Position numbers and translations under genes: made by a program
Notes under the pieces: generated by a model
Seen by the model: the letters and a program-made list of their open reading frames with translations, nothing else
Database searches by the model: none
What the model was told of the DNA's origin: nothing
Origin: Bacteroidota bacterium
GTDB lineage: Bacteria; Bacteroidota; Ignavibacteria; Ignavibacteriales; Ignavibacteriaceae
Assembly (NCBI GenBank): GCA_021815405.1
Contig: JAKAGV010000007.1
Span: 181,888 to 245,887 of the forward strand
Reading direction: 5' to 3'
Length of the DNA stretch: 64,000 nt
Shown here: piece after piece, positions 22,443-39,899 of the stretch
Position numbering within the stretch: the stretch's first letter is position 1
Layout: each line of letters opens with the position of its first letter

Positions 22443-25400
22443 TTGAAAAAAAATATCAGCAACAATCAAAAATATAACGAGCGGGAGCTAGAAGAATTCG
22501 AAGGTCTTCTAAAAAAACTCATTGCCGAAAACAAGATTCCTGAAAGTTTTAACAGTATTGCTGAAAACCTTTCATCAATTGTTTCTTCATATAAAAAAGA
22601 ATTTGAAACTCATAAACTAATTCTTGAAACTTCGGTTGATGTTATCTTTAAGATTACTCAAGCCGGCGAAATTATATCTATCGGAGAAAAGTGTAAGGAT
22701 ATTTTCGGATACGGTCCGGATGAATTAACAAACAAATTTATTACCAGTTTTATTCCTTCAACAGAATTAAAAAAAGCTTTAAAAATTTTCACAAAGCTTT
22801 TTAAGGAAAAGAAAGTAAAGAATGAGGTCGTTTCTTTAAAACATAAAAACGGGCAGTTAATTCCTATTGAACTGACTGCAATGGTAATTAAGCAGGACGG
22901 GAAATATATTGCCCAGGGAATATTGCATGAGCTAAGCGAGCGTTATAAAGTTGAAGCCAACACAGATATTTCGGATAGTATTTTCAAAAATGTTTGGGAA
23001 AAATCTTCAAACGGAATGTGCCTTGCCGATGAAAACGGTTATGTTTTTATGTGCAACACTGCTTATTCCAAAATCTTCAGTAAAGACAAAATTGAAATTG
23101 AACATCAACTTATTACAAATGTTTTATCCGATAGTACGGCTGATACTGTCTTAAGCGATTACACTAAAAATTTCAATGATCATTCTTTCCCAAGCAGTAT
23201 TGAAAAAAAATATGAGTTGTGGAACGGCACTGCAGTAGATTTTGAAGTAAGCTATTCTTTTATTGAAGGTGTAGGAGATAAAACACTTTTACTTATAATT
23301 TTTAAAGATATTTCTCTCAGAAAAGCAAGCGAAATTCATGCAAAGAAGAGGGACAACTTGCTTCAAGGAATTGCAGCGGCTACACAAAGACTTATTTCTA
23401 CAAATGATCCGGAAATCGGATTCTCTTCTGCCTTAAAAATACTTGGCGAAGCTGTCAAAGTAAACCGGGCTTACATTTATAAACATAAATCCGTAGAAGA
23501 TACCGGCGAAATGTACGTTAGTTTGCTTTATGAATGGACGTCTGAAGATACGGAACATCAAATTGAAAATATTGAACTGCAGAAACTATCTTACTCCCGA
23601 TTCGAATCTTTGAGATTCTACGATGCATTCTCCAACGGCAAGCCTCTTAGTTTTGTAATGAAAAATTTGTCCGAAGAAGAACGCCTTCTATTCATCGATA
23701 AAAATATTAAATCGATTATACTTGCACCGATCATGGTTGACGGACTTTATTGGGGCTTTCTTGGATTCGACGATTGTGAAACTGACAGGGAATGGACACC
23801 GAATGAAGGATCACTTTTGGTAACTATGGCTTCAATGCTTGGTGCTGTAATCAAGAGGAATAATATTCAGGACGAGCTAATAAAAAAGAATGCCGAACTT
23901 GACGCAGCAATAGTTAAAGCAGAAGCTGGAACTAAGGCTAAAAGCGAATTCCTTGCTTTGATGAGCCACGAAATTAGAACTCCAATGAACGGAGTAATCG
24001 GAATGACGGGGCTCCTTTTAGATACTGATTTAAGTGATGAGCAAAGAGAATATGTTGAAACAATCCGTCTCAGCGGTGATCATCTTTTAGTAATAATAAA
24101 TGATATATTGGACTTCTCTAAGATCGAATCAGAAAAATTAGAACTTGAAATGCAGCCTTTCGATCTGAAAGATTGTGTCGAAGACTGCCTTGATTTATTG
24201 GCTTCAAAAGCGGGCGACAAAGGTCTTGATCTTGCTTACTTGATTGAAAATAATACTCCTCAAACTATTTTTGGCGATGTTACAAGGCTTAAACAAATTA
24301 TTACCAATCTTCTTAACAATGCAATCAAGTTTACCGAAAAAGGCGAAGTCTTTCTTTCTGTTTCTTCCAAAGAGATTAACAATAATAAATTCGAAATTCA
24401 ATTCTTTGTTAAAGATACCGGCATAGGAATTCCAGAGGATAGGATTGACAGATTATTCAAGGCGTTCAATCAGGTAGATGTTTCTACAACAAGAACACAT
24501 GGCGGTACGGGACTTGGATTAGTAATTAGCAAACGACTTTCCGAGATGATGAGCGGAAAAATGTGGTTCGAAAGCAAGTACGGTGCAGGTTCTACTTTTT
24601 ATTTTACAATTATTGCTGAGCAAGCTCCTTCCAAATCAAAAATATATTTGAAAGGTAAAGCAATCGAGCTTGAAGGCAAGAAAGCTTTAATAGTGGATGA
24701 TAATGCTACGAACAGAAGAATCTTAAAAATGCAGACAGGCAACTGGGGTATGCAGCCCTATGTTGTTGAATCTCCGCTTGATGCAATTAGACTGATGAAT
24801 AACGGAGAAGACTTTGACATAGCTATTTTAGATTATCATATGCCGGTTATGAACGGCGTGGAGCTTACAAAAGAAATCCGTAACACTCCAAAGGGAAAAA
24901 ATCTTCCTGTTGTAATTTTAACATCGATAGGTAAAAGAGAAGCCGACGGAGATTTTAACAATTTGAATTTAGCCGCATTTATTACTAAGCCTGTTAAACA
25001 AGTTCAGCTTTATGATTGTCTTACTTCAATCTTATCCGGTAAAGAAAAAGTACAGTCCAATATTCCTAAGAATGAAGTAAAACTAGATACGGAATTGGGG
25101 CATCGAATGCCACTCAGAATTCTTTTAGCAGAAGACAATGTTGTAAATCAAAAGGTTGCTACTAGAATTTTGGAAAGGCTGGGATTCAGAGCAGATGTTG
25201 CTGCAAACGGGTTTGAGGTAATTGAGGCAATCAAAAGAATAAATTATGATATTATCTTTATGGATATTTTTATGCCCGAAATGGACGGCTATGAAGCTAC
25301 AAAATATATCCTGGATAATTATAAAAATGATGAGAGACCAAAAATAATTGCAATGACGGCGAATGCTATGCAGGGTGATAAAGAAAAATGCCTTGAAGCC

Positions 25401-25904
25401 GGAATGGATGATTACATCGGTAAACCTGTGCGTGTTGAAGAGCTTCAGGCATCACTGCAGAAGTGGGGATTAATTATTTACGACGATAAAAATTCCAGGC
25501 TTGCTGTAGATGAAAGTAAGCAAACGTCTTTCAAATATGTTGATGAAGGTAAAATTGATTTAATCCAGGATATAAAATCCTCCGAAGATTTAAATTTCTT
25601 TATAGAGCTGCTCGATATTTATATTAAAGATTTGCCATTAAGCATTGCAAGAATTAAAAATGCTGTGGTTCAAAGAGATAAGAATCAGATCAGATTTTAT
25701 GCACACAAACTGAAAGGAAGCAGTCTTACCTTTGGAATACGCGCAATATCAGATAAATGTATCAAGATAGAAGAAGCAGTTAAACAAGATATTGATAATC
25801 CTCGTACGGCTGATTTAGTTGAAGAGCTTATAGTAAAATTTGAAGTAGTTATAAAAGAACTGGAACAACTGAAAGAAAAATATAGTCACATGTCCTTCTC
25901 ATAA
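22443..25904 (+). CDS. Hybrid sensor histidine kinase (PAS-PAS-GAF-HisKA-HATPase-REC-REC-HPt)
   Basis: 1153 aa. H-box [12 protein letters not shown] and G-box GGTGLGL. Two receiver domains ([11 protein letters not shown] and [11 protein letters not shown]) and a C-terminal HPt (AHKLKGSS). Confidence 0.85.
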
Positions 25905-27776: not shown

Positions 27777-28133
<357 letters not shown>

Positions 28134-29622: not shown

Positions 29623-29655
29623 ATAATTATTGAAGCGATTAGTCAAATAATCGCT
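29623..29655 (+). terminator. Rho-independent terminator
   Basis: AAGCGATTA - gtcaaa - TAATCGCTT followed by TCTTTTTTT. It separates the dapF unit from the cytochrome cluster. Confidence 0.75.
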
Positions 29656-29703
29656 TTCTTTTTTTAAAGCAATTACTTTTAATCATCATTAAAAAAAGAT
29701 CCA

Positions 29704-30582
29704 ATGACGAAAACTGTACATAGATTTTATATCGCTTCCTTTTTCCTAATAACAATTACAGCAACTCTAGTCCTTTCTATTGAAGGATTCAATTATTATA
29801 AAACTCCTCTTGTTGATAGATTCTTTTCACCTCTCGATACATTACTTAAGCCAAGCGGATTAATCGGGCACGGTCTCGGCATTATAGGCAGTCTGATGAT
29901 GATTTTTGGGGTTGCAATCTATATGATACGAAAGCGAGTTAGATATTTCCATAAGTTCGGTTATCTTAAACATTGGCTGGAATTTCACATTTTCCTTTGC
30001 ACACTGGGTCCAATCTTAATTTTATTTCACACCGCATTTAAGTTTGGCGGAATTGTAGCAGTAAGTTTTTGGAGCATGGTAGCAGTAGTAATTAGTGGTG
30101 CAATAGGAAAATTTATCTATACTCAAGTACCGCATACAATTCAAGGGCAAATGATTAGCTTGCACGAATTAAATTCGCTAAGTGAAAATCTTTCGCAAGA
30201 GCTCAAAAATGATTATGGACTGTCTGACAAAATTATATCTAAAATAGAGCAAATTTCTTCCTTAGACCGCTACAAAAGATTAAAATTTGGAGCGAGTATG
30301 GCACTTGTAATACAGGATTATTTTGGTACAAAAAATGTATTGAACATGCTGAAAAAAGAATTACGCGTTGCCAATGTTCATAAAATTCAAAGGAAGAAAA
30401 TTTTAAAGACTGCTAAAGAAAAACTAGTTATTTCTAGGCGTATAGGATTATTAAATACAACGCAGAAGATACTAAAATACTGGCATGTAATTCATCTTCC
30501 TTTTGCGATCATAATGTTTATCATAATGTTCGTTCACATTGCGGTAGAAATTATATTCGGCTATACGTGGATCTTTAAGTGA
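29704..30582 (+). CDS. Polytopic membrane protein with two H-x13-H pairs (putative di-heme b-type transmembrane cytochrome)
   Basis: 292 aa with about 5 TM helices. H95-x13-H109 (EFH IFLCTLGPILILF H) and H264-x13-H278 (VIH LPFAIIMFIIMFV H) sit in two separate helices. A ~110-aa basic loop lies between TM4 and TM5. Confidence 0.5.
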   Translation: MTKTVHRFYIASFFLITITATLVLSIEGFNYYKTPLVDRFFSPLDTLLKPSGLIGHGLGIIGSLMMIFGVAIYMIRKRVRYFHKFGYLKHWLEFHIFLCTLGPILILFHTAFKFGGIVAVSFWSMVAVVISGAIGKFIYTQVPHTIQGQMISLHELNSLSENLSQELKNDYGLSDKIISKIEQISSLDRYKRLKFGASMALVIQDYFGTKNVLNMLKKELRVANVHKIQRKKILKTAKEKLVISRRIGLLNTTQKILKYWHVIHLPFAIIMFIIMFVHIAVEIIFGYTWIFK

Positions 30583-30670
30583 TTATTGGGATTTTATGGT
30601 GAGAAATAAAATGGGGAATTTTAGGGAGGGCAATTTAGATTACATATTTCATAAGTAAAGTGTGAGATAG

Positions 30671-32008
30671 ATGGAAATATTATTGGAAAATCTCGCTACC
30701 TATCTGGTAGTCTTTATTGCCGCAACTGCTGTTTTGATATTATATATTAAAAAGCTTAGAAGAAATACTCGGGAAACCAAATCAAAGATTGAAGAGTCAA
30801 TCCAATTTGGTCTTCATGAACCGGTTTCTTTGCATCCTGTAATAAATCATGATTTATGCTTTGGCTGCGGATCTTGCATTGAAGCTTGCCCCGAACAGGA
30901 TGTGCTTGGTCTTATGGAAGCACAAGCTCATATAATACACGCTTCCAGGTGCGTTGGACATGGTGCATGCTTTAGGGCATGTCCGGTTGATGCAATAACA
31001 TTATGTATAGGTACAGATCAGCGCGGTGTAGATCTTCCGCATGTTACACCTGAATATGAATCAAACATTCCCGGTTTATTTATTGCCGGCGAACTTGGAG
31101 GAATGGGATTAATTAAGAATGCAGTTGAGCAGGGGAAAATGGCTATAAATTTTCTTTCTAATAAAATTCCTTCGTCATCAAAAGCACAATATGACGTCAT
31201 CATTGTCGGAGCTGGTCCTGCCGGCATAGCTGCATCTCTTGCTGCTGAAAAAAAGAAAATGAAATATCTAACCCTGGAACAGGATAGTCTTGGTGGAACA
31301 GTTTTCAATTTTCCACGTGCAAAAATTATTATGACTGCACCAATGGATTTACCTTTACATGGAAAAGTTAAGCTTAGAGAAACTTCAAAGAGTGCGCTTA
31401 TTGAGTTATGGCGTGAGGTTTTAAGTAAGAATCGGATAGTCATTCATGAAAGTGAAAAAGTTGAATCAATAGAAAGAAAGGGGGATTATTTTTTTGAAGT
31501 CAAAACGAATAAAAGACAATATACTTCGCAAGGAATAATACTTGCAATCGGAAGAAGAGGAACACCGCGTAAACTAGGTGTCCCAGGTGAACAAAAAGAA
31601 AAAGTGGCTTATCGTTTAATTGAACCTGAATTAATATCTAATCAATCTATATTAATTGTCGGCGGAGGAGATTCTGCTGTAGAATCCGCAATGTTACTTA
31701 TGAACAATAATAAAGTTACTATTTCTTACCGGAGTGAAAATTTCTCTCGCTTGAAGCCGAAGAATCTTGAATTAATTCAGAATTCGGAAAAAAGCGGTAA
31801 GGTCAAGATTTATTTCAATTCAAACGTTAAAGAAATTTTAGATGATAAAGTTATTCTTGTCGTTTCCGGTTTAGAAAATAATGTAACTATAAAGAATGAC
31901 TTAGTATATATTTTCGCAGGCGGCTTACTGCCGACTGACTTTCTTCAGAAGATAGGCATACAAGTAATGAAGAAACACGGCGAAGCTGTTATAAAACCTG
32001 GACAATAA
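30671..32008 (+). CDS. Membrane-anchored 2x[4Fe-4S] ferredoxin-domain / FAD-NAD(P)-binding oxidoreductase (thioredoxin-reductase-like fold)
   Basis: N-terminal TM helix followed by KKLRRNTRETK. Cluster motifs CFGCGSCIEACP and CVGHGACFRACP. Rossmann motifs DVIIVGAGPAGIAAS and ILIVGGGDSAVE. Confidence 0.7.
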   Translation: MEILLENLATYLVVFIAATAVLILYIKKLRRNTRETKSKIEESIQFGLHEPVSLHPVINHDLCFGCGSCIEACPEQDVLGLMEAQAHIIHASRCVGHGACFRACPVDAITLCIGTDQRGVDLPHVTPEYESNIPGLFIAGELGGMGLIKNAVEQGKMAINFLSNKIPSSSKAQYDVIIVGAGPAGIAASLAAEKKKMKYLTLEQDSLGGTVFNFPRAKIIMTAPMDLPLHGKVKLRETSKSALIELWREVLSKNRIVIHESEKVESIERKGDYFFEVKTNKRQYTSQGIILAIGRRGTPRKLGVPGEQKEKVAYRLIEPELISNQSILIVGGGDSAVESAMLLMNNNKVTISYRSENFSRLKPKNLELIQNSEKSGKVKIYFNSNVKEILDDKVILVVSGLENNVTIKNDLVYIFAGGLLPTDFLQKIGIQVMKKHGEAVIKPGQ

Positions 32009-32111
32009 TTTGTCGTTGATTCATAAGCGGTTGAAAGGAACAGAAATTTTTAAAGCGGTTTTTTTATTGAGGCATATTAAGTGCCGGGGTAATGTCTCGG
32101 CTTATTTTGTT

Positions 32112-33725
32112 ATGAAGAAATTGACGAGCCTGTTTAGTCTTTCAATCATTATTATGATTATGGTGTCGATGAGAACAAATGCGCAAATATCACCTGGTAA
32201 TCTTACTTTGGCGCATGCAAAGTTAGAAGGCTTAAGCAATTGTACAAAATGTCATGTTCTCGGAAAGCAGGTAGAAAATTTTAAGTGCCTCGATTGCCAT
32301 ACCGAGATTAAACAGCTTATAGATGAGGGTAAGGGATACCACGCAAGCAGCGATGTTAAAAATCAAAAGTGTTATAAGTGCCATAGTGAGCATCATGGAA
32401 GAAATTTTAGAATAATCAATTTCGATCCTAATAAATTTGACCATAACAAAACCGGATTTAGATTGGACGGCAAGCATACGCAGATAAAATGCGAAGACTG
32501 CCATCAAACCAAATTTATTATTAACACTACTCTATTTGATAAAAGAAGTGGAACTTATTTAGGTTTAAGTACAAAATGCGTTTCATGTCATGAAGATGTT
32601 CATCAAAATACTCTTGGAACCAACTGCTCTTCCTGCCACAACACAGTAAAATTTAATCCTGCTGTTTTCTTCAACCATAATAATGCAAAGTTTAAACTGA
32701 CAGGCGCACACACCAAGGTTGAATGTATTAAGTGCCATGTTAAAGAAACTTTTAACGGTAAGACATTTCAGAAATTTGTAGGATTGGATTTTAAGAATTG
32801 CATGCCGTGTCATGCAGATGTTCATAAAGGGCAGTTAGGAAATAACTGCGTTAAATGCCATAATGATGAATCCTTCCTAGTAGTCAACCGTAACTCATTT
32901 GATCATGATAAGACGAGATATCCATTAAGAGGTGCCCACGTAGAAGTTTCTTGTAAAAGCTGCCACGGTAATATTCCTCTTTCTAAACCGAAGTTTGCAA
33001 AATGTACCGACTGCCATAAGGACGAACACTTCGGTGAATTTACTGTAAATCATGTTGTTGAAGACTGCAAGAACTGCCACACGGTAGAAAGTTTTAAGTC
33101 AACAATATTTACTATTCAAGAACATAATAAAGGTAATTTTGAATTAACCGACGCTCATTTAGCAGTGCCGTGTCAGTCATGTCATTATAAATCAAATGAA
33201 AAGCAATGGCACTTTAAAAATACAGGGACTAGATGCATCGACTGCCATAATAATGTTCATGGTTCGGAATTAACGGCAAAGTTTTTACCGGATAACAAAT
33301 GTCAGTCTTGTCATGTAACCGATGATTGGAATAAAATTAATTTCAATCACGATCTGACGAGCTTCAAGTTAGAAGGTAAGCATGCAGAAATATCATGCGC
33401 CGACTGCCACGAACAGAAAAGTGCCGGTGGAAAAATAATTTTCAAATTTGCGTCAACGAAATCTGATTGCGTAACATGTCATAATGATGTTCACTTCGGA
33501 CAGTTCAATTCCGAAAAAACAGACGATATCCCGGTCTGCGAAAAATGTCACGGCTTTGATAATTGGAAGCCGGTGAAGTTTGATCATGAAAAGACAGCAT
33601 TCGCGTTAAAGGGTGCTCACGAAAAAGTGAAATGTTCAGATTGTCATAAGAAAGTTACTGTAGATGGAAATGAATTTATACAATATAAGCTGAAAGATTT
33701 TAAATGCGCTGCGTGTCATTCATAA
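32112..33725 (+). CDS. Multiheme c-type cytochrome, 20 CXXCH motifs
   Basis: ATG at 32112 (MKKLTSLFSLSIIIMIMVSMRTNAQ signal/anchor). I counted 20 CXXCH motifs. The pattern F.H..(T/K).F.L.G.H....C..CH recurs throughout. Confidence 0.85.
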   Translation: MKKLTSLFSLSIIIMIMVSMRTNAQISPGNLTLAHAKLEGLSNCTKCHVLGKQVENFKCLDCHTEIKQLIDEGKGYHASSDVKNQKCYKCHSEHHGRNFRIINFDPNKFDHNKTGFRLDGKHTQIKCEDCHQTKFIINTTLFDKRSGTYLGLSTKCVSCHEDVHQNTLGTNCSSCHNTVKFNPAVFFNHNNAKFKLTGAHTKVECIKCHVKETFNGKTFQKFVGLDFKNCMPCHADVHKGQLGNNCVKCHNDESFLVVNRNSFDHDKTRYPLRGAHVEVSCKSCHGNIPLSKPKFAKCTDCHKDEHFGEFTVNHVVEDCKNCHTVESFKSTIFTIQEHNKGNFELTDAHLAVPCQSCHYKSNEKQWHFKNTGTRCIDCHNNVHGSELTAKFLPDNKCQSCHVTDDWNKINFNHDLTSFKLEGKHAEISCADCHEQKSAGGKIIFKFASTKSDCVTCHNDVHFGQFNSEKTDDIPVCEKCHGFDNWKPVKFDHEKTAFALKGAHEKVKCSDCHKKVTVDGNEFIQYKLKDFKCAACHS

Positions 33726-36664
33726 TTGTTTTATTACTGGGGGTAGTGAATGTCTTTGCACAATCACCTCATGGCAAAGATTTGAAGATGGATTGTTCGG
33801 ACTGTCATATGTCTACAAACTGGAATATTGTTCCGGCTAAGATAAAATTTAATCATAATACTATGACTTCATTTAAATTGACTGGACAGCATACAACGGT
33901 AAGCTGTCAGTCGTGTCATAAAAGTCTAATTTTTTCTGAGGCAAAATCGAATTGTATATCTTGCCACAAAGATATTCATAAAAATTCTTTAGGACCTAAT
34001 TGCGTTGAATGCCACAATACTCAGTCTTGGATTGCAGTTAATATTTTAAAATTGCATCAGGACAGCAGGTTTTCGCTGGTTGGTGTTCATCAAAATGTTG
34101 ATTGTCAAAGTTGCCACTCAGGTTTTGCTGATTTATATTTTCCGACTCAAAGTACATCGTGTTATAGCTGCCATAAAACGCAATTCGCCGCAGCCACCGC
34201 ACCAAATCATGTTCAAGCAAATTTTTCCACCGACTGCCGGCAATGCCACAGTGTAACAGATTTTTCATGGGGGACAAGCAATTTTAATCATAATTTCTTC
34301 CCGCTTGTAGGCGGGCATAATATTCAGAACTGTTTTGCCTGCCATGCAGCGGGAAGTAATTTCCAGGGATTGACAACTGCTTGCTATCCATGTCATAAAC
34401 AGGATTATGCAAATGCAAAAAATCCCGATCATGTTGCGGCTAAGTTTCCAATTGAATGTCAGGATTGCCATACTTCTACAGCTACAAGTTTTGCTCAGGC
34501 ATCAACTTTTAATCATAGTACTACCGGTTTTCCATTGACCGGTGCACACACTACTGTTTTATGCCAGTCTTGCCATAATGGAAATTATACAAGCACGCCA
34601 TCGGATTGCAACTCATGCCATAATAAAGATTATGCAGGTACAACAAATCCGAATCATGCTGCTATTGGATTGGCGACTACGTGTCAAGATTGTCATAATA
34701 CAACAACCTTTACTACAACCACTTTTAATCATTCTACAACTTCATTTGGGCTAACAGGTGCACACACAACTATTTCATGTCAATCATGCCATAAGGGAAA
34801 TGTTGCCTCAACACCGACAGATTGTTATAGCTGCCATGCAACCCAATATAATAACACAACAGATCCGAACCATGCACAGCAAGGTTTCTCGCATGATTGT
34901 TCTCAGTGTCATAGTACAACTAGTTTTGGTGATGCAAATTTCAATCATAGCAATACCGGTTTCCCATTGACTGGAGCACACACTACCGTCTCCTGCCAGT
35001 CTTGTCATAATGGAAATTATACAAGCACGCCGTCTGATTGCAACTCGTGCCATAATAAAGATTATACGGCAACTACTAATCCAAATCATTCTGCGATTGG
35101 TCTGCCGACGACATGTCAGGATTGTCATACAACAACAGACTTTACAACATCGACATTTAATCACTCGACAACACCATTCCCATTAACTGGTGCGCATACA
35201 TCTGTAACCTGTCAGTCATGTCATACAGGTAATGTAGCTTCAACACCGACAGATTGTTATAGCTGCCATGCAACCCAATATAACAACACAACAGATCCGA
35301 ACCATGCACAGCAGGGATTCTCACATGATTGTTCTCAGTGCCATAGTACAACAAGTTTCGGCGATTCAAATTTCAATCATAGTACTACCGGTTTTCCTTT
35401 GACTGGTGCACATACAACAGTTTCATGTCAGTCATGCCATAATGGAAATTATACAAGCACGCCGTCTGATTGCAACTCGTGCCATAATAAAGATTATACG
35501 GCAACTACTAATCCAAATCATTCTGCGATTGGTCTGCCGACGACATGTCAGGATTGTCATACAACAACAGACTTTACAACATCGACATTTAATCACTCGA
35601 CAACACCATTCCCATTAACTGGTGCGCATACATCTGTAACCTGTCAGTCATGTCATACAGGTAATGTAGCTTCAACACCGACAGATTGTTATAGCTGCCA
35701 TGCAACCCAATATAACAACACAACAGATCCGAACCATGCACAGCAGGGATTCTCACATGATTGTTCTCAGTGCCATAGTACAACAAGTTTCGGCGATGCA
35801 AATTTCAATCATAGCAATACCGGTTTCCCATTGACTGGAGCACATACTACCGTCTCCTGCCAGTCTTGTCATAATGGAAATTATACAAGCACGCCTTCTG
35901 ATTGCAACTCATGCCATAATAAAGATTATGTTGCAACTACAAATCCTAATCATGCTGCAATAGGATTGGCAACAACCTGTCAGGATTGCCACACAACAAC
36001 AGACTTTACAACATCGACATTTAATCACTCGACAACACCATTCCCATTAACTGGTGCGCATACGTCTGTAACCTGTCAGTCATGTCATACAGGTAATGTA
36101 GCTTCAACACCTACTGATTGCTATAGCTGTCATGCAACCCAATATAACAACACAACAGATCCAAACCATGTACAGCAAGGATTCTCGCATGACTGCTCTC
36201 AGTGTCATTCAACGACAAGTTTCGGCGATGCATCATTCAATCATAATAATACCGGATTTCCATTGACAGGTGCGCATACAACTGTCTCCTGCCAGTCATG
36301 CCATAATGGGAATTATACAAGCATACCTACTACTTGTTATTCATGCCATCAAACAGATTATAATAATACAACAAATCCTGCTCATCAAACTGCAGGGTTT
36401 CCCACGGACTGCACCCCTTGCCATACGACAACCGGTTGGACACCGTCGACTTTTAATCATACAACATATTTCCCATTGACGGGCAACCATGATATTTCTA
36501 CTTGCAATACATGCCATATAAATGCTTCAAACTTCGGAACATTTTCTTGCACTAATACATGTCACAGTCAGGCAAGTACAGATCCGCATCATACCGGGGT
36601 AAATGGATATGTTTACAGCCCAACATCATGCTACAGTTGCCATCCAACAGGGCAGGGAGATTAG
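33704..36664 (+). CDS. Giant multiheme c-type cytochrome, 39 CXXCH plus one CX3CH, built of c7-like triheme modules
   Basis: 986 aa with signal peptide MRCVSFIIVLLLGVVNVFA/QS. I counted 39 CXXCH motifs and one CTNTCH. The start overlaps the end of the upstream cytochrome gene by 22 nt. Very Thr/Ser/Asn-rich. Confidence 0.85.
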   Translation: MRCVSFIIVLLLGVVNVFAQSPHGKDLKMDCSDCHMSTNWNIVPAKIKFNHNTMTSFKLTGQHTTVSCQSCHKSLIFSEAKSNCISCHKDIHKNSLGPNCVECHNTQSWIAVNILKLHQDSRFSLVGVHQNVDCQSCHSGFADLYFPTQSTSCYSCHKTQFAAATAPNHVQANFSTDCRQCHSVTDFSWGTSNFNHNFFPLVGGHNIQNCFACHAAGSNFQGLTTACYPCHKQDYANAKNPDHVAAKFPIECQDCHTSTATSFAQASTFNHSTTGFPLTGAHTTVLCQSCHNGNYTSTPSDCNSCHNKDYAGTTNPNHAAIGLATTCQDCHNTTTFTTTTFNHSTTSFGLTGAHTTISCQSCHKGNVASTPTDCYSCHATQYNNTTDPNHAQQGFSHDCSQCHSTTSFGDANFNHSNTGFPLTGAHTTVSCQSCHNGNYTSTPSDCNSCHNKDYTATTNPNHSAIGLPTTCQDCHTTTDFTTSTFNHSTTPFPLTGAHTSVTCQSCHTGNVASTPTDCYSCHATQYNNTTDPNHAQQGFSHDCSQCHSTTSFGDSNFNHSTTGFPLTGAHTTVSCQSCHNGNYTSTPSDCNSCHNKDYTATTNPNHSAIGLPTTCQDCHTTTDFTTSTFNHSTTPFPLTGAHTSVTCQSCHTGNVASTPTDCYSCHATQYNNTTDPNHAQQGFSHDCSQCHSTTSFGDANFNHSNTGFPLTGAHTTVSCQSCHNGNYTSTPSDCNSCHNKDYVATTNPNHAAIGLATTCQDCHTTTDFTTSTFNHSTTPFPLTGAHTSVTCQSCHTGNVASTPTDCYSCHATQYNNTTDPNHVQQGFSHDCSQCHSTTSFGDASFNHNNTGFPLTGAHTTVSCQSCHNGNYTSIPTTCYSCHQTDYNNTTNPAHQTAGFPTDCTPCHTTTGWTPSTFNHTTYFPLTGNHDISTCNTCHINASNFGTFSCTNTCHSQASTDPHHTGVNGYVYSPTSCYSCHPTGQGD
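34508..36235 (+). repeat. Four in-frame tandem copies of a 432-bp (144-aa, 6-heme) unit with a 216-bp sub-period
   Basis: Units start at 34508, 34940, 35372 and 35804. Segment 35006-35365 is identical base-for-base to 35438-35797 (360 bp). A degenerate fifth unit follows to about 36470. Confidence 0.9.
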
Positions 36665-36669
36665 TATTT

Positions 36670-38346
36670 ATGAATTATGATAGGTATGAGATGAAATTGT
36701 ATCGGAGAATATTAAATAACCAATTGAAAAAGTTGTTTGAAATATTTTTGCTAATTATATTATTTTTTGGTGCTGCCTTAGCTCAAGAATCAAATACCGT
36801 TAGAAAAAGCGGAACTGTATCATTCGTTACTCCGCAAAATATTTATGTTAAGTTCGAGAATACAGAAGGAATATCCGCCGGCGATACTCTTTATTTTCAA
36901 ATAAGAAATAAAGTACTGCCTGCAATGATTGTAAAATTTATTTCTTCTATTTCAGTTGCCGGACAGAAGATAACCGATATCAATATTAAAGTTGGGGACC
37001 GGCTTTTTACAACGATAAAGAATAGCAAATCCGAAGTAGCCCAAATATCAAAAGCCGGAACTGAAAAGGACACTAATCTTGTTAATGACCATAGTAAGAT
37101 TGTAAAAGCCGATAAGTTCAATATCCCCGAATACAGATCAAATTTTTATGGAAGCATAAGTGCAAATTCGTTTTCTAATTACGCCAACTATGTTAACAGT
37201 GTAGGCATCCAGCGCTGGAATTACACTTTAAATCTTAATGCAAGAAATATAGGCGGCGGTCCGTTTTATTTTACAAATTATATGAACTTAAATTACATGA
37301 GCTCAGAATGGACGGATGTAAAAGCAAACGTATTTAATAATTTAAGAGTGTATGATTTTTCACTCGGTTATAAAGTGCATGGATTTAATGCCTGGATAGG
37401 CAGACACACAAATTATAATATTTCAAGTCTTGGTCCGGTTGACGGGATTGAATTGGAAAAATCTTTCTTGAATAACTTTGCTGTAGGTGGAGTAATTGGC
37501 TCAAGGCCGGATTTTTATAACATGGGAATTAACGGAAAGCTGTTTGAGTACGGCGGTTATTTAACAAGAAAGGATTCTGCAAACAATGGAGTTATGCAAA
37601 ATACAGTTGCCTTATTCCAGCAAACCAATTCAGGTATGACTGACAGAAGATATTTATACTTCCAGCATACAAATACTATTATTCCGAATGTATATCTATT
37701 TGCTTCCACGGAAGTTGATTTATATAAGGAACAAAACAACGTTCCGCAGAATACATTTTCTCTTACAAGCCTTTTTGTCAATACTCAGTATTCGCCTGTA
37801 AACTTTCTTTCAATTAACCTTTCATACGACGCCAGAAAGAATGTTGTTTATTATCAAACATTTAAAAGCTTCCTAGATAGTCTGTTTACAAATGAAATGA
37901 GACAAGGCGTTCAAGGCGGATTTTTTATAAGACCCGGCGGCGGGTTGTTCTTTAATATTTCAGGCGGTTACAGCTATCAGAAAGGCGACGTTAAGCCAGC
38001 GCGTAATTTAAATTTTGCTGTTACTGAAGCCGAGCTTCCTTTTATTGATATTTCTGCTACGGTAAATTATAATAAGATTTTTGGAAGCTACCAGAGCGGA
38101 ACAATGTATGGGCTGCTGCTTACCAAATTTATTAACTTTAATGTTACTACTCTTTCTTTAGGATTTTCAAATATTAATTACAATTTTGGCAATGCATTAG
38201 CCGATTTTATACAGAAGTCAGTTACCGCCGAAATTGATACAAGAATATTCGGTCCGCTCTTCTTCAATTTTTATTATGAAGGAGATTTTGACGGTGTAAC
38301 CACATATAACCGTTTTATGACGGGCTTCAATTACAGATTTAGATAA
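36670..38346 (+). CDS. Putative outer-membrane beta-barrel protein with an N-terminal soluble domain
   Basis: The ATG at 36670 (or 36691) gives the signal-like LFEIFLLIILFFGAALA/QE. The body is aromatic/Gly/Asn-rich with alternating hydrophobicity. It ends with the OMP-type C-terminus ...GFNYRF. Starts 5 nt after the cytochrome stop. Confidence 0.55.
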   Translation: MNYDRYEMKLYRRILNNQLKKLFEIFLLIILFFGAALAQESNTVRKSGTVSFVTPQNIYVKFENTEGISAGDTLYFQIRNKVLPAMIVKFISSISVAGQKITDINIKVGDRLFTTIKNSKSEVAQISKAGTEKDTNLVNDHSKIVKADKFNIPEYRSNFYGSISANSFSNYANYVNSVGIQRWNYTLNLNARNIGGGPFYFTNYMNLNYMSSEWTDVKANVFNNLRVYDFSLGYKVHGFNAWIGRHTNYNISSLGPVDGIELEKSFLNNFAVGGVIGSRPDFYNMGINGKLFEYGGYLTRKDSANNGVMQNTVALFQQTNSGMTDRRYLYFQHTNTIIPNVYLFASTEVDLYKEQNNVPQNTFSLTSLFVNTQYSPVNFLSINLSYDARKNVVYYQTFKSFLDSLFTNEMRQGVQGGFFIRPGGGLFFNISGGYSYQKGDVKPARNLNFAVTEAELPFIDISATVNYNKIFGSYQSGTMYGLLLTKFINFNVTTLSLGFSNINYNFGNALADFIQKSVTAEIDTRIFGPLFFNFYYEGDFDGVTTYNRFMTGFNYRFR

Positions 38347-38379: not shown

Positions 38380-39000
38380 ATGTTTGGAAAAATAAAACCC
38401 TTATATATTTATTTGGTCGCAATATTTTTAGGTATAGTAGGACTTTTCATCTTTAATAAAATTCATAATAAAACCTCTGCGGAGATGAATGCACCGCCTA
38501 TTGATGTAAACGGTCAAGCCGTTCCTAATGATGCAATTCATAAAGGATTGGTAAATCCAGTTGCACAAAAGCCGAACAAGAACAACGTAATGCCGAGCAT
38601 TATGCAGCATATGGAAACATTAAAGAAGGCGGTTATTGATCATCCGAGAGATACTTTAAAGTTAAGAGAATATGCCGACTTTCTTGCTGAAGCTCAAATG
38701 AATGATAAAGCTTTGAATTATTATCAGAAGATTCTTCGCATAAATCCCAGAAGAACCGACGTCATGACTTCAATGGTTTACATTTATTTTGCTGAAAAAA
38801 ATTTTAAAGAAGCCGAGAGATACTTGAATAAAATTTTATTTGTAAATAGAAACGACGTTAATGCTTTGTACAACCTTGGCGCAGTTTCGGCTAATGAGGG
38901 AAACAGAGTGAAAGCTAAACAGTTGTGGACAAAAATTGTTAAGGAGTTTCCAAACTCACCTCTTGCAAAAGAAGCAAGGGCTTCATTAAGCCAACTATAG
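38380..39000 (+). CDS. Membrane-anchored TPR-repeat protein (paralog 1)
   Basis: 206 aa with an N-terminal TM helix and TPR-like repeats (A..YY.KIL..NP....). Clear paralog of 39294..39899. Confidence 0.6.
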   Translation: MFGKIKPLYIYLVAIFLGIVGLFIFNKIHNKTSAEMNAPPIDVNGQAVPNDAIHKGLVNPVAQKPNKNNVMPSIMQHMETLKKAVIDHPRDTLKLREYADFLAEAQMNDKALNYYQKILRINPRRTDVMTSMVYIYFAEKNFKEAERYLNKILFVNRNDVNALYNLGAVSANEGNRVKAKQLWTKIVKEFPNSPLAKEARASLSQL

Positions 39001-39293: not shown

Positions 39294-39899
39294 ATGAAAA
39301 ACATTAAACCTATTTACATATACGGAATCGGTGTAATATTAAGTGCACTGGTATTTATTTTCCTTTCACAAAAAGATGAGACAAGCTATCCTGGTAAGAC
39401 AGGAAACATGACTAACGAGCAAATGCCGAATGATAATATCCATAAAGGATTAACAAATCCGTTGCAGCTTCCAAATAAAAATAATGTTGCTGAAGCTATT
39501 ATGCAGCGGATGCAAATGCTTAAGCAGGCTGCTGAATCTAATCCGAAAGACACTGCAAAACTTAAAGCCTATGCGGATTTTCTTTCAGCGGCGCATCAGC
39601 CTGACGAAGCATTGGTTTACTACAACAAAATATTAAGTATGTATCCAAGGCGGATCGATGTTCTTTTCTCGGTTGCTTATCTAAATTATACAAAAAGAAA
39701 TTTTACCGAAGCGGAAAAGATTCTGAAAAAAGTTATTTCTTATGATAGGAATAATCTTCAGGCATATTATAATTTAGGTGCAATTGCTGCAAGCGAAGGT
39801 AACAAGGAAAAAGCAAAAGAAATCTGGACAAAATTGATTAAAGATCATCCAACTGCACAGATTGCTGCTACAGCTAGAAAATCTTTAGGTGAGATTTAA
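39294..39899 (+). CDS. Membrane-anchored TPR-repeat protein (paralog 2)
   Basis: 201 aa. Shares PND.IHKGL.NP, NKNNV, YADFL, YYN.GA..A.EGN..KAK..WTK with paralog 1. Confidence 0.6.
   Translation: MKNIKPIYIYGIGVILSALVFIFLSQKDETSYPGKTGNMTNEQMPNDNIHKGLTNPLQLPNKNNVAEAIMQRMQMLKQAAESNPKDTAKLKAYADFLSAAHQPDEALVYYNKILSMYPRRIDVLFSVAYLNYTKRNFTEAEKILKKVISYDRNNLQAYYNLGAIAASEGNKEKAKEIWTKLIKDHPTAQIAATARKSLGEI

Follow-up and report, generated by a model that had tools for sequence, protein, structure and literature searches.

A stretch of 64,000 nt from a member of the Ignavibacteriaceae (Bacteroidota bacterium, GenBank assembly GCA_021815405.1, contig JAKAGV010000007.1, positions 181,888 to 245,887 of the forward strand; hereafter the window) contains two adjacent genes, here named A and B, which probably encode the inner-membrane entry of an extracellular electron transfer (EET) module similar to the porin-cytochrome clusters (PCC) of type PCC3, with this entry being fed by NAD(P)H and bypassing the quinones. 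Gene A (29704-30582, + strand) encodes a 292 aa inner-membrane protein with five predicted transmembrane (TM) helices, and gene B (30671-32008, + strand) encodes a TM-anchored ferredoxin-flavoprotein of 445 aa. The observations behind this reading are the order of the genes, their sequence motifs, conservation and predicted topology, the co-occurrence of the pair with multihaem cytochromes, and the replacement of the flavoprotein partner of A in other lineages.

Two invariant histidine pairs on predicted transmembrane helices of A

A preliminary description of this DNA had pointed out that His95 and His109 of A (codons 29986-88 and 30028-30) are 13 residues apart in one TM helix, and that His264 and His278 are likewise 13 residues apart in the last one, and both pairs were found as described. 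The codons of His95 and His109 are both CAC, and these residues fall within the third hydrophobic segment (residues 91-112), corresponding to helix 88-109 of the AlphaFold model, while His264 and His278 lie in the hydrophobic segment 260-285, which is the end of a long helix spanning residues 227-284. The histidines of A are located at positions 6, 56, 83, 90, 95, 109, 144, 154, 226, 261, 264 and 278. The two pairs are part of the motifs W91-x3-H95-x13-H109 on TM3 (29974-30030, + strand) and W260-x3-H264-x13-H278 on TM5 (30481-30537, + strand), and TM4 carries the motif S131-G132-x-x-G135 (S131-G132-A-I-G135; 30094-30108, + strand).

When sequences of the composition of protein A were shuffled, two H-x13-H pairs were obtained with P = 0.064, and two pairs each within a single TM segment with P = 0.002. 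In a single sequence the twin H-x13-H pattern is only modestly unlikely, and conservation is the decisive evidence. All four histidines are invariant in 140 relatives of ~28-86% identity, in which mean column identity is 35% and only 17 columns are invariant, the four histidines included, with W260, S131, G132 and G135 being invariant too and W91 invariant or nearly so. They are also among the 10 invariant columns of a curated alignment of 33 sequences (25-52% identity), and W260, G59, Y73, G132, G135 and P143 accompany them as invariant residues in both alignments. Within a set of 107 full-length representatives (25-52% identity), H95 was present in 106, H109 in 107, H264 in 100 and H278 in 101, with most of the exceptions being gaps. 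The family is large: the candidates that were scored comprise >7,000 clusters at 90% identity, and at 50% identity 3,166 clusters reached E <= 1e-3. The members of the clusters of the ten most divergent representatives are annotated almost only as 'hypothetical protein'.

A confident AlphaFold2 model of A built on the 140 homologues (pLDDT 83.8, pTM 0.72) contains TM helices at residues 3-27, 53-78, 88-109 and 117-141, followed by a helical cytoplasmic insert (residues 153-222, within the ~115 aa that separate TM4 from TM5) and the long helix 227-284 that ends as TM5. Counts of Lys and Arg per loop were 2, 6 and 22 for the inside versus 3, 1 and 1 for the outside, which indicates a five-helix topology with the N-terminus inside and the C-terminus outside, and hence that TM3 and TM5 both run from inside to outside. 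The preliminary description had named incompatible membrane depths as an argument that would tell against its proposal; in the predicted topology H95 and H264 are both near the cytoplasmic face and H109 and H278 both near the periplasmic face. Fourteen positions along a helix span ~21 Å and return to nearly the same helical face. Based on these features, we propose that H95 and H264 may ligate a cytoplasmic-side haem and H109 and H278 a periplasmic-side haem, and A is probably a di-haem b transmembrane electron carrier of the type of the inner-membrane protein (IMP) of PCC3 and PCC4. Besides the proposed haem ligands, the best-conserved patches of A are basic and Gly-rich motifs on the cytoplasmic face, consisting of R76-K77-R78 after TM2 and G132-x2-G135-R136-x2-Y139-x3-P143 at the end of TM4, whereas the periplasmic loops are short.

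Searches with A against Pfam and NCBIfam gave no match, including for PF01794 (gathering threshold 28 bits), and a search of PDB sequences with the family profile returned only a meaningless coiled-coil match (E = 5). A permissive Pfam scan of the 140 relatives had DUF4405 (120/140), Ferric_reduct (76/140) and Ni_hydr_CYTB (58/140) as its top three families, which we take to be members of one Pfam clan of di-haem cytochromes; all of these matches are sub-threshold and fall on the His-bearing helices. In ten relatives scanned singly, Ferric_reduct reached at most 20 bits, with a best E-value of 6.8e-5. These weak matches point to a remote relationship or to convergence with di-haem b proteins, not to membership of their families.

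One could also read the histidines as ligands of another metal or as purely structural, with A being a scaffold or sensor for the cluster, and it would fit with this that none of the haem protein families or structures is significantly similar to A and that two H-x13-H pairs in one sequence are only marginally unexpected (P = 0.064). We rate this explanation as the least probable of those considered here, as the four histidines are invariant, are preceded by a Trp on both helices and match in membrane depth and helical register, and as the only recurrent weak family matches to A are to di-haem b families.

Gene B looks like a membrane-tethered ferredoxin-flavoprotein

As stated in the preliminary description, B starts with one N-terminal TM helix (about residues 3-30) followed by the basic stretch KKLRRNTRETK, and contains motifs for the binding of FAD and NAD(P), namely GAGPAG (residues 180-185) and GGGDSA (residues 331-336). 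The acidic N-terminus, the single TM helix, the basic stretch and the lack of a Tat or Sec signal agree with its placement of the flavoprotein in the cytoplasm, a periplasmic location having been named as an argument against the proposal. Two CxxCxxCxxxCP ferredoxin motifs had been reported as well, of which only the first is present (C63-x2-C66-x2-C69-x3-C73-P), since the second reads C94-x2-H97-x2-C100-x3-C104-P. Both are located in a ferredoxin domain at residues 56-112 (30836-31006, + strand), which passes the Pfam thresholds for Fer4 as a dicluster domain. H97 of the second motif is invariant in all 59 sequences compared (58 orthologues and the window protein), and position 66 is Ser in 47/59, with the canonical Cys found only in the window protein and one other. 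These His and Ser variants suggest that the B family may contain 3Fe-4S clusters or clusters with Ser and His ligands. The non-canonical sites in the window are at 30857-30868 (residues 63-66) and 30950-30961 (residues 94-97).

The C-terminal 270 residues of B match Pyr_redox_3 (4e-45) and also Pyr_redox_2, and the closest solved relatives are YpdA/Bdr (PDB 7a76, 5.7e-32), followed by thioredoxin reductases (TrxR) and the TrxR-type ferredoxin-NADP+ reductases (FNR), the latter represented in PDB by matches to 3ab1, 3lzw, 2zbw and 8c16. By the NCBI threshold B is not a YpdA, with a score of 166.5 bits against the YpdA model TIGR04018, which has a curated cut-off of 339.9. YpdA/Bdr enzymes have a conserved active-site cysteine in the flavoprotein, whereas B has none: all eight of its Cys residues are within residues 63-112 in the ferredoxin domain, and none aligns with C135 or C138 of TrxB. 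The absence of Cys outside the ferredoxin domain excludes a thiol-disulfide mechanism for B, and the possibility that B is a bacillithiol or thioredoxin reductase was ruled out for the same reason.

The alignment of B with Escherichia coli TrxB was found to be split. Residues 176-394 of B align with TrxB 9-216, and residues 130-142 (ESNIPGLFIAGEL) align with TrxB 276-288 (QTSIPGVFAAGDV), which is the C-terminal FAD motif of that enzyme. These alignments indicate that the FAD domain of B is circularly permuted relative to TrxR and YpdA, and that the ferredoxin domain is attached to the N-terminus which the permutation created. The equivalent of the FAD 'GD' strand-helix is located at residues 126-165 (…ESNIPGLFIAGELGG…; 31046-31165, + strand), preceding the first Rossmann motif, and in the model of B it consists of a strand (136-140) and a helix (148-165); a second stretch of B matched PDB 7a7b, in line with the shift of the GD segment. 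The 'PGxFAAGD' FAD segment thus directly follows the ferredoxin domain, ahead of the first GxGxxG. Furthermore, Arg354 and Arg360 of B are invariant and align with Arg176 and Arg181 of TrxB, which we take to bind the 2′-phosphate of NADPH, and the conservation of these residues suggests that NADPH may be likelier than NADH as the substrate of B. Taken as a whole, B looks like a TrxR-type ferredoxin:NAD(P)H oxidoreductase that has its ferredoxin on the same chain and is tied to the membrane.

Conservation of the module with its cytochromes across genomes

A scan of the GTDB species representatives identified at least 596 places encoding a relative of A, and the best 80 of these were annotated by BLAST with the proteins of the window. 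The closest relatives of the window are metagenome-assembled genomes (MAGs) of Ignavibacteriaceae, with the best species-representative locus (L003) having a gene A of 84% amino acid identity. The order A, (TPR protein), B, cytochrome (with 20 CxxCH motifs in most loci), cytochrome (16-67 CxxCH) and porin-like protein was kept in Ignavibacteria, Bacteroidales, Prolixibacteraceae, Saprospiraceae, Flavobacteriales and one Chlorobiota MAG, and the same gene set was present in a Marinimicrobia locus. In most Ignavibacteria the TPR orthologue is located between A and B. The dapF gene and the gene for a 101 aa protein, which are upstream of A in the window, are kept at this position only in Ignavibacteria, whereas the upstream genes differ elsewhere.

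B was present in 70 of the 71 loci with >= 2.5 kb of downstream sequence, and the co-occurrence of the pair with multihaem cytochromes, put forward earlier as a check of the proposal, was seen in the same 70/71 loci with enough flank. The exception (L041, 8001-9515) has only A and the TPR gene, with B and the cytochromes gone, and looks like a remnant of the cluster. Rearrangements were found in one locus where B had moved to the end of the cluster, behind the porin (L016), and in one with two copies of B, the second being inverted (L079). A single protein of 418 aa (P0162) was considered as a possible fusion of A and B, and was rejected upon inspection as a patchwork of the 226 N-terminal residues of an A homologue, a short cytochrome-like stretch and a C-terminal part of a B-type flavoprotein; it is probably an artefact of assembly or decay and was hence not used as Rosetta-stone evidence.

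The module is also present in a cultured member of the Cytophagales, Emticicia oligotrophica DSM 17448, where plasmid pEMTOL02 carries it whole (L090, NC_018749.1, 78197-89995) in the order fused CcsBA, A, B, two cytochromes and a porin-like protein. Here A (WP_015031196) is annotated as 'hypothetical protein' and B as 'NAD(P)-binding domain-containing protein'. The location of this copy on a plasmid hints at horizontal mobility.

A second, unrelated flavoprotein is found beside A in another clade

Relatives of A with ~30% identity to the window protein, among them those of Vicinamibacterales and further Acidobacteria, form a second clade. Immediately upstream of A in this clade is a gene for a protein of ~450 aa that is anchored in the membrane by N-terminal TM helices, has FAD_binding_6 and NAD_binding_1 domains and a C-terminal plant-type 2Fe-2S (Fer2) domain, and passes the cut-off of NAD_binding_6 ('ferric reductase NAD binding', 31.1 versus 22.2 bits). 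Downstream of A follow a giant cytochrome (1,330-1,614 aa, with 51 CxxCH motifs in one of them) and then a protein of 437-455 aa with a signal peptide. When metagenomes were scanned for this clade, the FNR-type gene was present in all 23 loci with >= 2 kb on both sides and the YpdA type in none of them, while all 39 loci with >= 1.5 kb downstream had a multihaem cytochrome. The FNR-type partners of two Acidobacteria loci (L083, 7649-8998; L085, 7653-8999) have two N-terminal TM helices with conserved-looking His residues.

A minimal version of this arrangement is found on a plasmid of the gammaproteobacterium Methylophaga pinxianii (L091, NZ_CP095734.1, 25047-28401), which encodes a 612 aa FAD_binding_6/NAD_binding_1/Fer2 protein with a long N-terminal extension, a 252 aa A-like protein, a 7-haem cytochrome and also a DUF1622 protein. 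The A-like protein keeps both H-x13-H pairs and the SGxxG motif, and scored 108 bits against the hidden Markov model (HMM) of the A family. This module is located between copper/heavy-metal resistance genes and a complete ccm operon, with no porin gene adjacent.

The presence of two unrelated membrane-tethered NAD(P)H-type FeS flavoproteins, each fixed beside A in its own clade, is by sequence a case of non-orthologous displacement. Such a swap of partners argues that the conserved function is the delivery of electrons from cytoplasmic pyridine nucleotides to A, and this replacement is the best support for reading the pair as a 'split NOX', i.e. as an NADPH oxidase-like system with the membrane and flavoprotein parts on separate polypeptides.

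The partner replacement also bears on the possibility that A is a quinone-active di-haem cytochrome b connecting the menaquinone pool with a periplasmic cytochrome, with B being an accessory or alternative input such as a local NAD(P)H:quinone reductase. The majority of di-haem b subunits in bacteria react with quinones, among them FdnI, NarI, HybB and cytochrome b. Some relatives of A lack an adjacent flavoprotein, proteobacterial PCC3 clusters have been described without one, and quinone reactivity is what He et al. (2017) proposed for the inner-membrane proteins of PCC3 and PCC4. The recruitment of two unrelated flavoproteins beside A (70/71 and 23/23 loci) would be hard to explain if its cytoplasmic face were to meet only quinone; moreover, the best-conserved patches of A other than the proposed ligands are the motifs on that face, and no quinone-site signature was identified in A. 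We consider the quinone model unlikely for the pair, and possible above all for clusters without a flavoprotein.

Another role for A and B could be in the maturation of the giant cytochromes, where they would handle reductant or haem across the membrane, so that haem or apocytochrome stays reduced during ~60 haem attachments, together with the CcmI/NrfG-like TPR proteins. The CcmH/CcmI-like TPR genes within the module, in most Ignavibacteria between A and B, and the fused CcsBA preceding the Emticicia plasmid copy would be compatible with such a role, as would the membership of B in the thioredoxin reductase superfamily and the use of conserved TM histidines by CcmF and CcsBA. A has short periplasmic loops and no WWD or similar periplasmic haem-handling domain, neither A nor the flavoprotein part of B has redox cysteines, and the modules of clade 2 and Methylophaga contain no TPR or Ccs genes although A still has a flavoprotein and a cytochrome beside it, which makes the maturation hypothesis improbable. 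The simplest view of the TPR proteins, and of CcsBA in Emticicia, is that they are maturation factors for the ~60 haem attachment sites.

Proposed path of electrons from NAD(P)H to the cytochromes

The path that we infer, in terms of haem binding, contact between A and B, nucleotide specificity and direction of flow, would start at the cytoplasmic face, where B would oxidise NAD(P)H at its TrxR/YpdA-type FAD domain. The FAD would then release single electrons through the two atypical Fe-S clusters of B, one of which would be His-ligated and the other probably 3Fe-4S or Ser-ligated in most orthologues. His-ligated clusters are often found at points of electron entry or exit, such as in hydrogenases (distal clusters) and complex I (cluster N5). 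From B the electrons would pass to the inner haem b of A (H95/H264), with R76-K77-R78, the G132-P143 motif and the helical insert as candidate docking surfaces, the motifs being reminiscent of the basic B-loop of NOX. They would subsequently move ~21 Å along the helices to the outer haem b (H109/H278) and onto the 20-haem periplasmic cytochrome. By way of the porin-like protein they would then reach the 39-haem cytochrome, and finally external acceptors such as Fe(III), humics or a partner cell. Outward transfer would be favoured by the membrane potential, while the proton from NAD(P)H oxidation would stay in the cytoplasm, so that this path would dissipate rather than build the proton-motive force. 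The A-B path would then be an electron sink regenerating NAD(P)+ and not a coupling site, following a logic comparable to that of flavin-based EET in fermentative Gram-positives.

The same components could in principle operate in the reverse direction, with electrons from extracellular Fe(II) or a cathode moving via the cytochromes, A and B to NAD(P)H. PCC3 is common in iron oxidisers of the Gallionellaceae, in which it is usually discussed, and the inner-membrane component of one copy was up-regulated during active iron oxidation. Transfer to NAD(P)+ would be uphill in redox potential and would run against an inside-negative membrane potential, with a passive two-haem wire having no evident means to pay this energy cost; in addition, the hosts are Ignavibacteria and Bacteroidota, which are known organotrophs with Fe(III)-reducing members. 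We therefore regard inward flow as very improbable.

Several points weigh against the reading of A and B as a quinone-independent, NAD(P)H-fed entry. The assignment of haem b to members of the A family rests on their sequence and predicted topology, and A scores below the Pfam threshold for every di-haem family. Foldseek searches of the A model against PDB returned nothing at E <= 1e-3, with generic helical bundles on top. Neither MsrQ nor YodB of E. coli was recovered by the A family HMM, even when its filters were disabled, and hhalign of the A profile against each of the two sequences alone gave no significant result (MsrQ probability 0.5%). For B, the AlphaFold model has a low confidence (pLDDT 64.6, <50 for the ferredoxin domain). 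One locus has the order TPR, A, four cytochromes and porin without a flavoprotein gene within 9 kb (L087), and PCC3, still described as functionally unverified in 2025, was listed as four genes with no flavoprotein among them. A can evidently work with another partner, possibly quinones, because some of its relatives and the published proteobacterial PCC3 clusters lack a flavoprotein. Finally, an outward flow of NAD(P)H electrons conserves no energy, which would be unusual for such a costly, haem-rich machine.

With these points taken into account, the observations of the preliminary description are partly confirmed, being real except for one ferredoxin motif, and its interpretation is supported, as it survived each of the refutations it had named that could be run in silico. 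The wider proposal, a widespread quinone-independent EET route in which membrane-tethered, NAD(P)H-oxidising FeS flavoproteins, recruited at least twice from unrelated folds, feed a separate family of five-helix di-haem b proteins, and cytoplasmic reducing power thus goes directly to periplasm-spanning 20-haem and outer 40-haem cytochromes, is in our estimation evenly balanced between being right and wrong.

Relation to known electron transfer systems

The porin-cytochrome clusters PCC3 and PCC4 were defined as putative clusters by He et al. (2017, Front Microbiol, PMC5566968), with an IMP of ~300 aa that has five TM helices, of which TM3 and TM5 each carry W-x3-H-x13-H and TM4 carries SGxxG. 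These authors likened the IMP to the ferric-reductase domain of FRE/NOX and to cytochrome b, and proposed a quinone-active di-haem cytochrome b (PMC5566968). Gene A resembles the IMP in its length of 292 aa, its five TM helices, both W-x3-H-x13-H motifs, S131-G132-x2-G135 and its annotation as hypothetical protein; the likeness to the IMPs of Sideroxydans lithotrophicus ES-1 and Leptothrix cholodnii is drawn from the published description of the IMP. The clusters are also alike in having a porin-like protein, a periplasmic cytochrome (~21 haems in PCC3 versus 20 here) and a larger outer cytochrome with low-complexity repeats. The published clusters are proteobacterial, comprise four genes without a flavoprotein and have been linked to Fe(II) oxidation or quinones, whereas the module described here is from Ignavibacteria and has B and TPR genes conserved.

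Gene A shares with the ferric-reductase proteins (NOX, FRE, STEAP, MsrQ; PF01794) the bis-His pairs on TM3 and TM5 with a spacing of 13 residues, an N-terminus on the inside, a basic cytoplasmic loop between TM2 and TM3, and, as proposed for A, a cytoplasmic NAD(P)H/FAD module as electron donor with exit on the other side; the clade-2 partner of A even has the FNR-type FAD/NAD fold and matches the ferric-reductase NAD-binding domain. It differs from the ferric-reductase domain in having five TM helices instead of six, a large cytoplasmic insert between TM4 and TM5, and a C-terminus on the outside, and the spacing of the His pairs is 13/13 in A versus 13/12 in NOX. Compared with these proteins, the dehydrogenase of the module is a separate polypeptide with Fe-S clusters predicted between flavin and haem, and the proposed acceptor is a multihaem cytochrome c instead of O2, Fe3+ or MsrP. 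A precedent for a non-fused system is E. coli MsrQ-Fre, where the di-haem b protein MsrQ receives electrons in the membrane from a distinct NAD(P)H flavin reductase, Fre, and passes them to a redox partner in the periplasm. Fre is soluble, lacks Fe-S clusters and is not encoded beside msrQ, while MsrQ is a true member of the ferric-reductase domain family and has a molybdoenzyme as acceptor.

In the pathway, A and B would take the same position as CymA, ImcH, CbcL and CbcBA, between the inner membrane and the periplasmic multihaem cytochromes with a porin-cytochrome conduit. Those proteins are quinol dehydrogenases with c-type haems, with or without b-type haems, whereas the module has no inner-membrane subunit with c-type haem and is proposed to use NAD(P)H. 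For residues ~126-440 of B, the closest relatives are YpdA/Bdr and the TrxR-type FNRs (7a76, 7a7b, 3ab1, 3lzw, 2zbw), and B resembles the TrxR-type FNRs in lacking a CxxC disulfide. In contrast to both groups it is permuted and includes, in the same polypeptide, a TM anchor and a ferredoxin domain that has a CxxHxxCxxxCP motif.

The membrane protein and its analogy to NOX, with the twin HX13H motifs, have thus been known from PCC3/PCC4 since 2017. In a non-exhaustive search of the literature we found no description of a flavoprotein partner of PCC3 or of the module in Ignavibacteria or Bacteroidota, and within the literature searched the coupling to a flavoprotein, with its permuted ferredoxin-flavoprotein carrying His/Ser variants, appears to be new, as do the breadth of the module in Ignavibacteria, Bacteroidota, Marinimicrobia and Acidobacteria and the quinone-independent 'split NOX' model.

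Among the products of PCC3-type clusters are some of the largest known multihaem cytochromes, and these clusters serve as markers of iron cycling. Their pairing with NAD(P)H-type FeS flavoproteins offers a concrete and testable mechanism, implying direct, quinone-independent export of electrons from NAD(P)H. If correct, PCC3-type clusters would gain the inner-membrane mechanism that they have been missing, as a prokaryotic 'split NOX' with a cytochrome wire as acceptor, and the pairing would represent a new way of wiring bacterial metabolism to minerals, humics or partners. The clusters of fermentative Ignavibacteria, Bacteroidota and Acidobacteria would then serve as a sink for redox balancing instead of an energy-conserving respiration, and a new protein family would join those with NOX-like electron transfer across membranes. 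A compact inner-membrane module of two genes could also be of use in synthetic electroactive strains, and Emticicia oligotrophica DSM 17448 is a cultured host in which experiments are feasible.

Cytochromes, accompanying genes and genomic setting

Behind B in the window, and all on the + strand, follow a 571 aa multihaem cytochrome c with 20 CxxCH motifs by motif count (32010-33725), a 986 aa multihaem cytochrome c with a signal peptide and 39 CxxCH motifs plus one CxxxCH (33704-36664), a 595 aa porin-like protein with a signal peptide and without a family match (36559-38346), a TM-anchored TPR protein similar to CcmH/CcmI/NrfG (38380-39000) and a second TM-anchored TPR paralogue (39294-39899). 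There are no real gaps between A, B, both cytochrome genes, the porin-like gene and the TPR genes. The probable true start of the 20-haem cytochrome is the ATG at 32112, which gives the signal peptide MKKLTSLFSLSIIIMIMVSMRTNAQ and a predicted periplasmic location. The 986 aa cytochrome contains a tandem repeat of 432 bp (144 aa) in 4.2 copies with 89% identity (34503-36323), and as its orthologues have 16 to 67 CxxCH motifs, the number of haems seems to change in evolution as repeat units are added or lost. With its 39 haems it is presumably an outer or extracellular cytochrome. For the porin-like protein the probable start is the ATG at 36691, retaining the signal peptide; its gene keeps its place after both cytochromes across loci, and we take its identity as a porin or beta-barrel from this context and from the PCC3 precedent. 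The TPR proteins are likely to be chaperones for apocytochromes and part of the module.

The window has a low GC content (~36%). A terminator-like hairpin with a T-run (29632-29657, + strand) is located between the upstream 101 aa gene and gene A, which weakly suggests that A opens a new transcription unit; the scan with the terminator consensus gave 11 sites versus 6.7 ± 2.5 expected. Further upstream, a full-length tmRNA gene (27777-28133, + strand; Rfam RF00023, 182.7 bits) occupies the 720 bp gap between a cobalamin adenosyltransferase-like gene and dapF. The gene at 22443-25904 (+ strand), ~4 kb upstream of the module, encodes a large hybrid sensor kinase with PAS/GAF, HisKA/HATPase, two receiver domains and Hpt.

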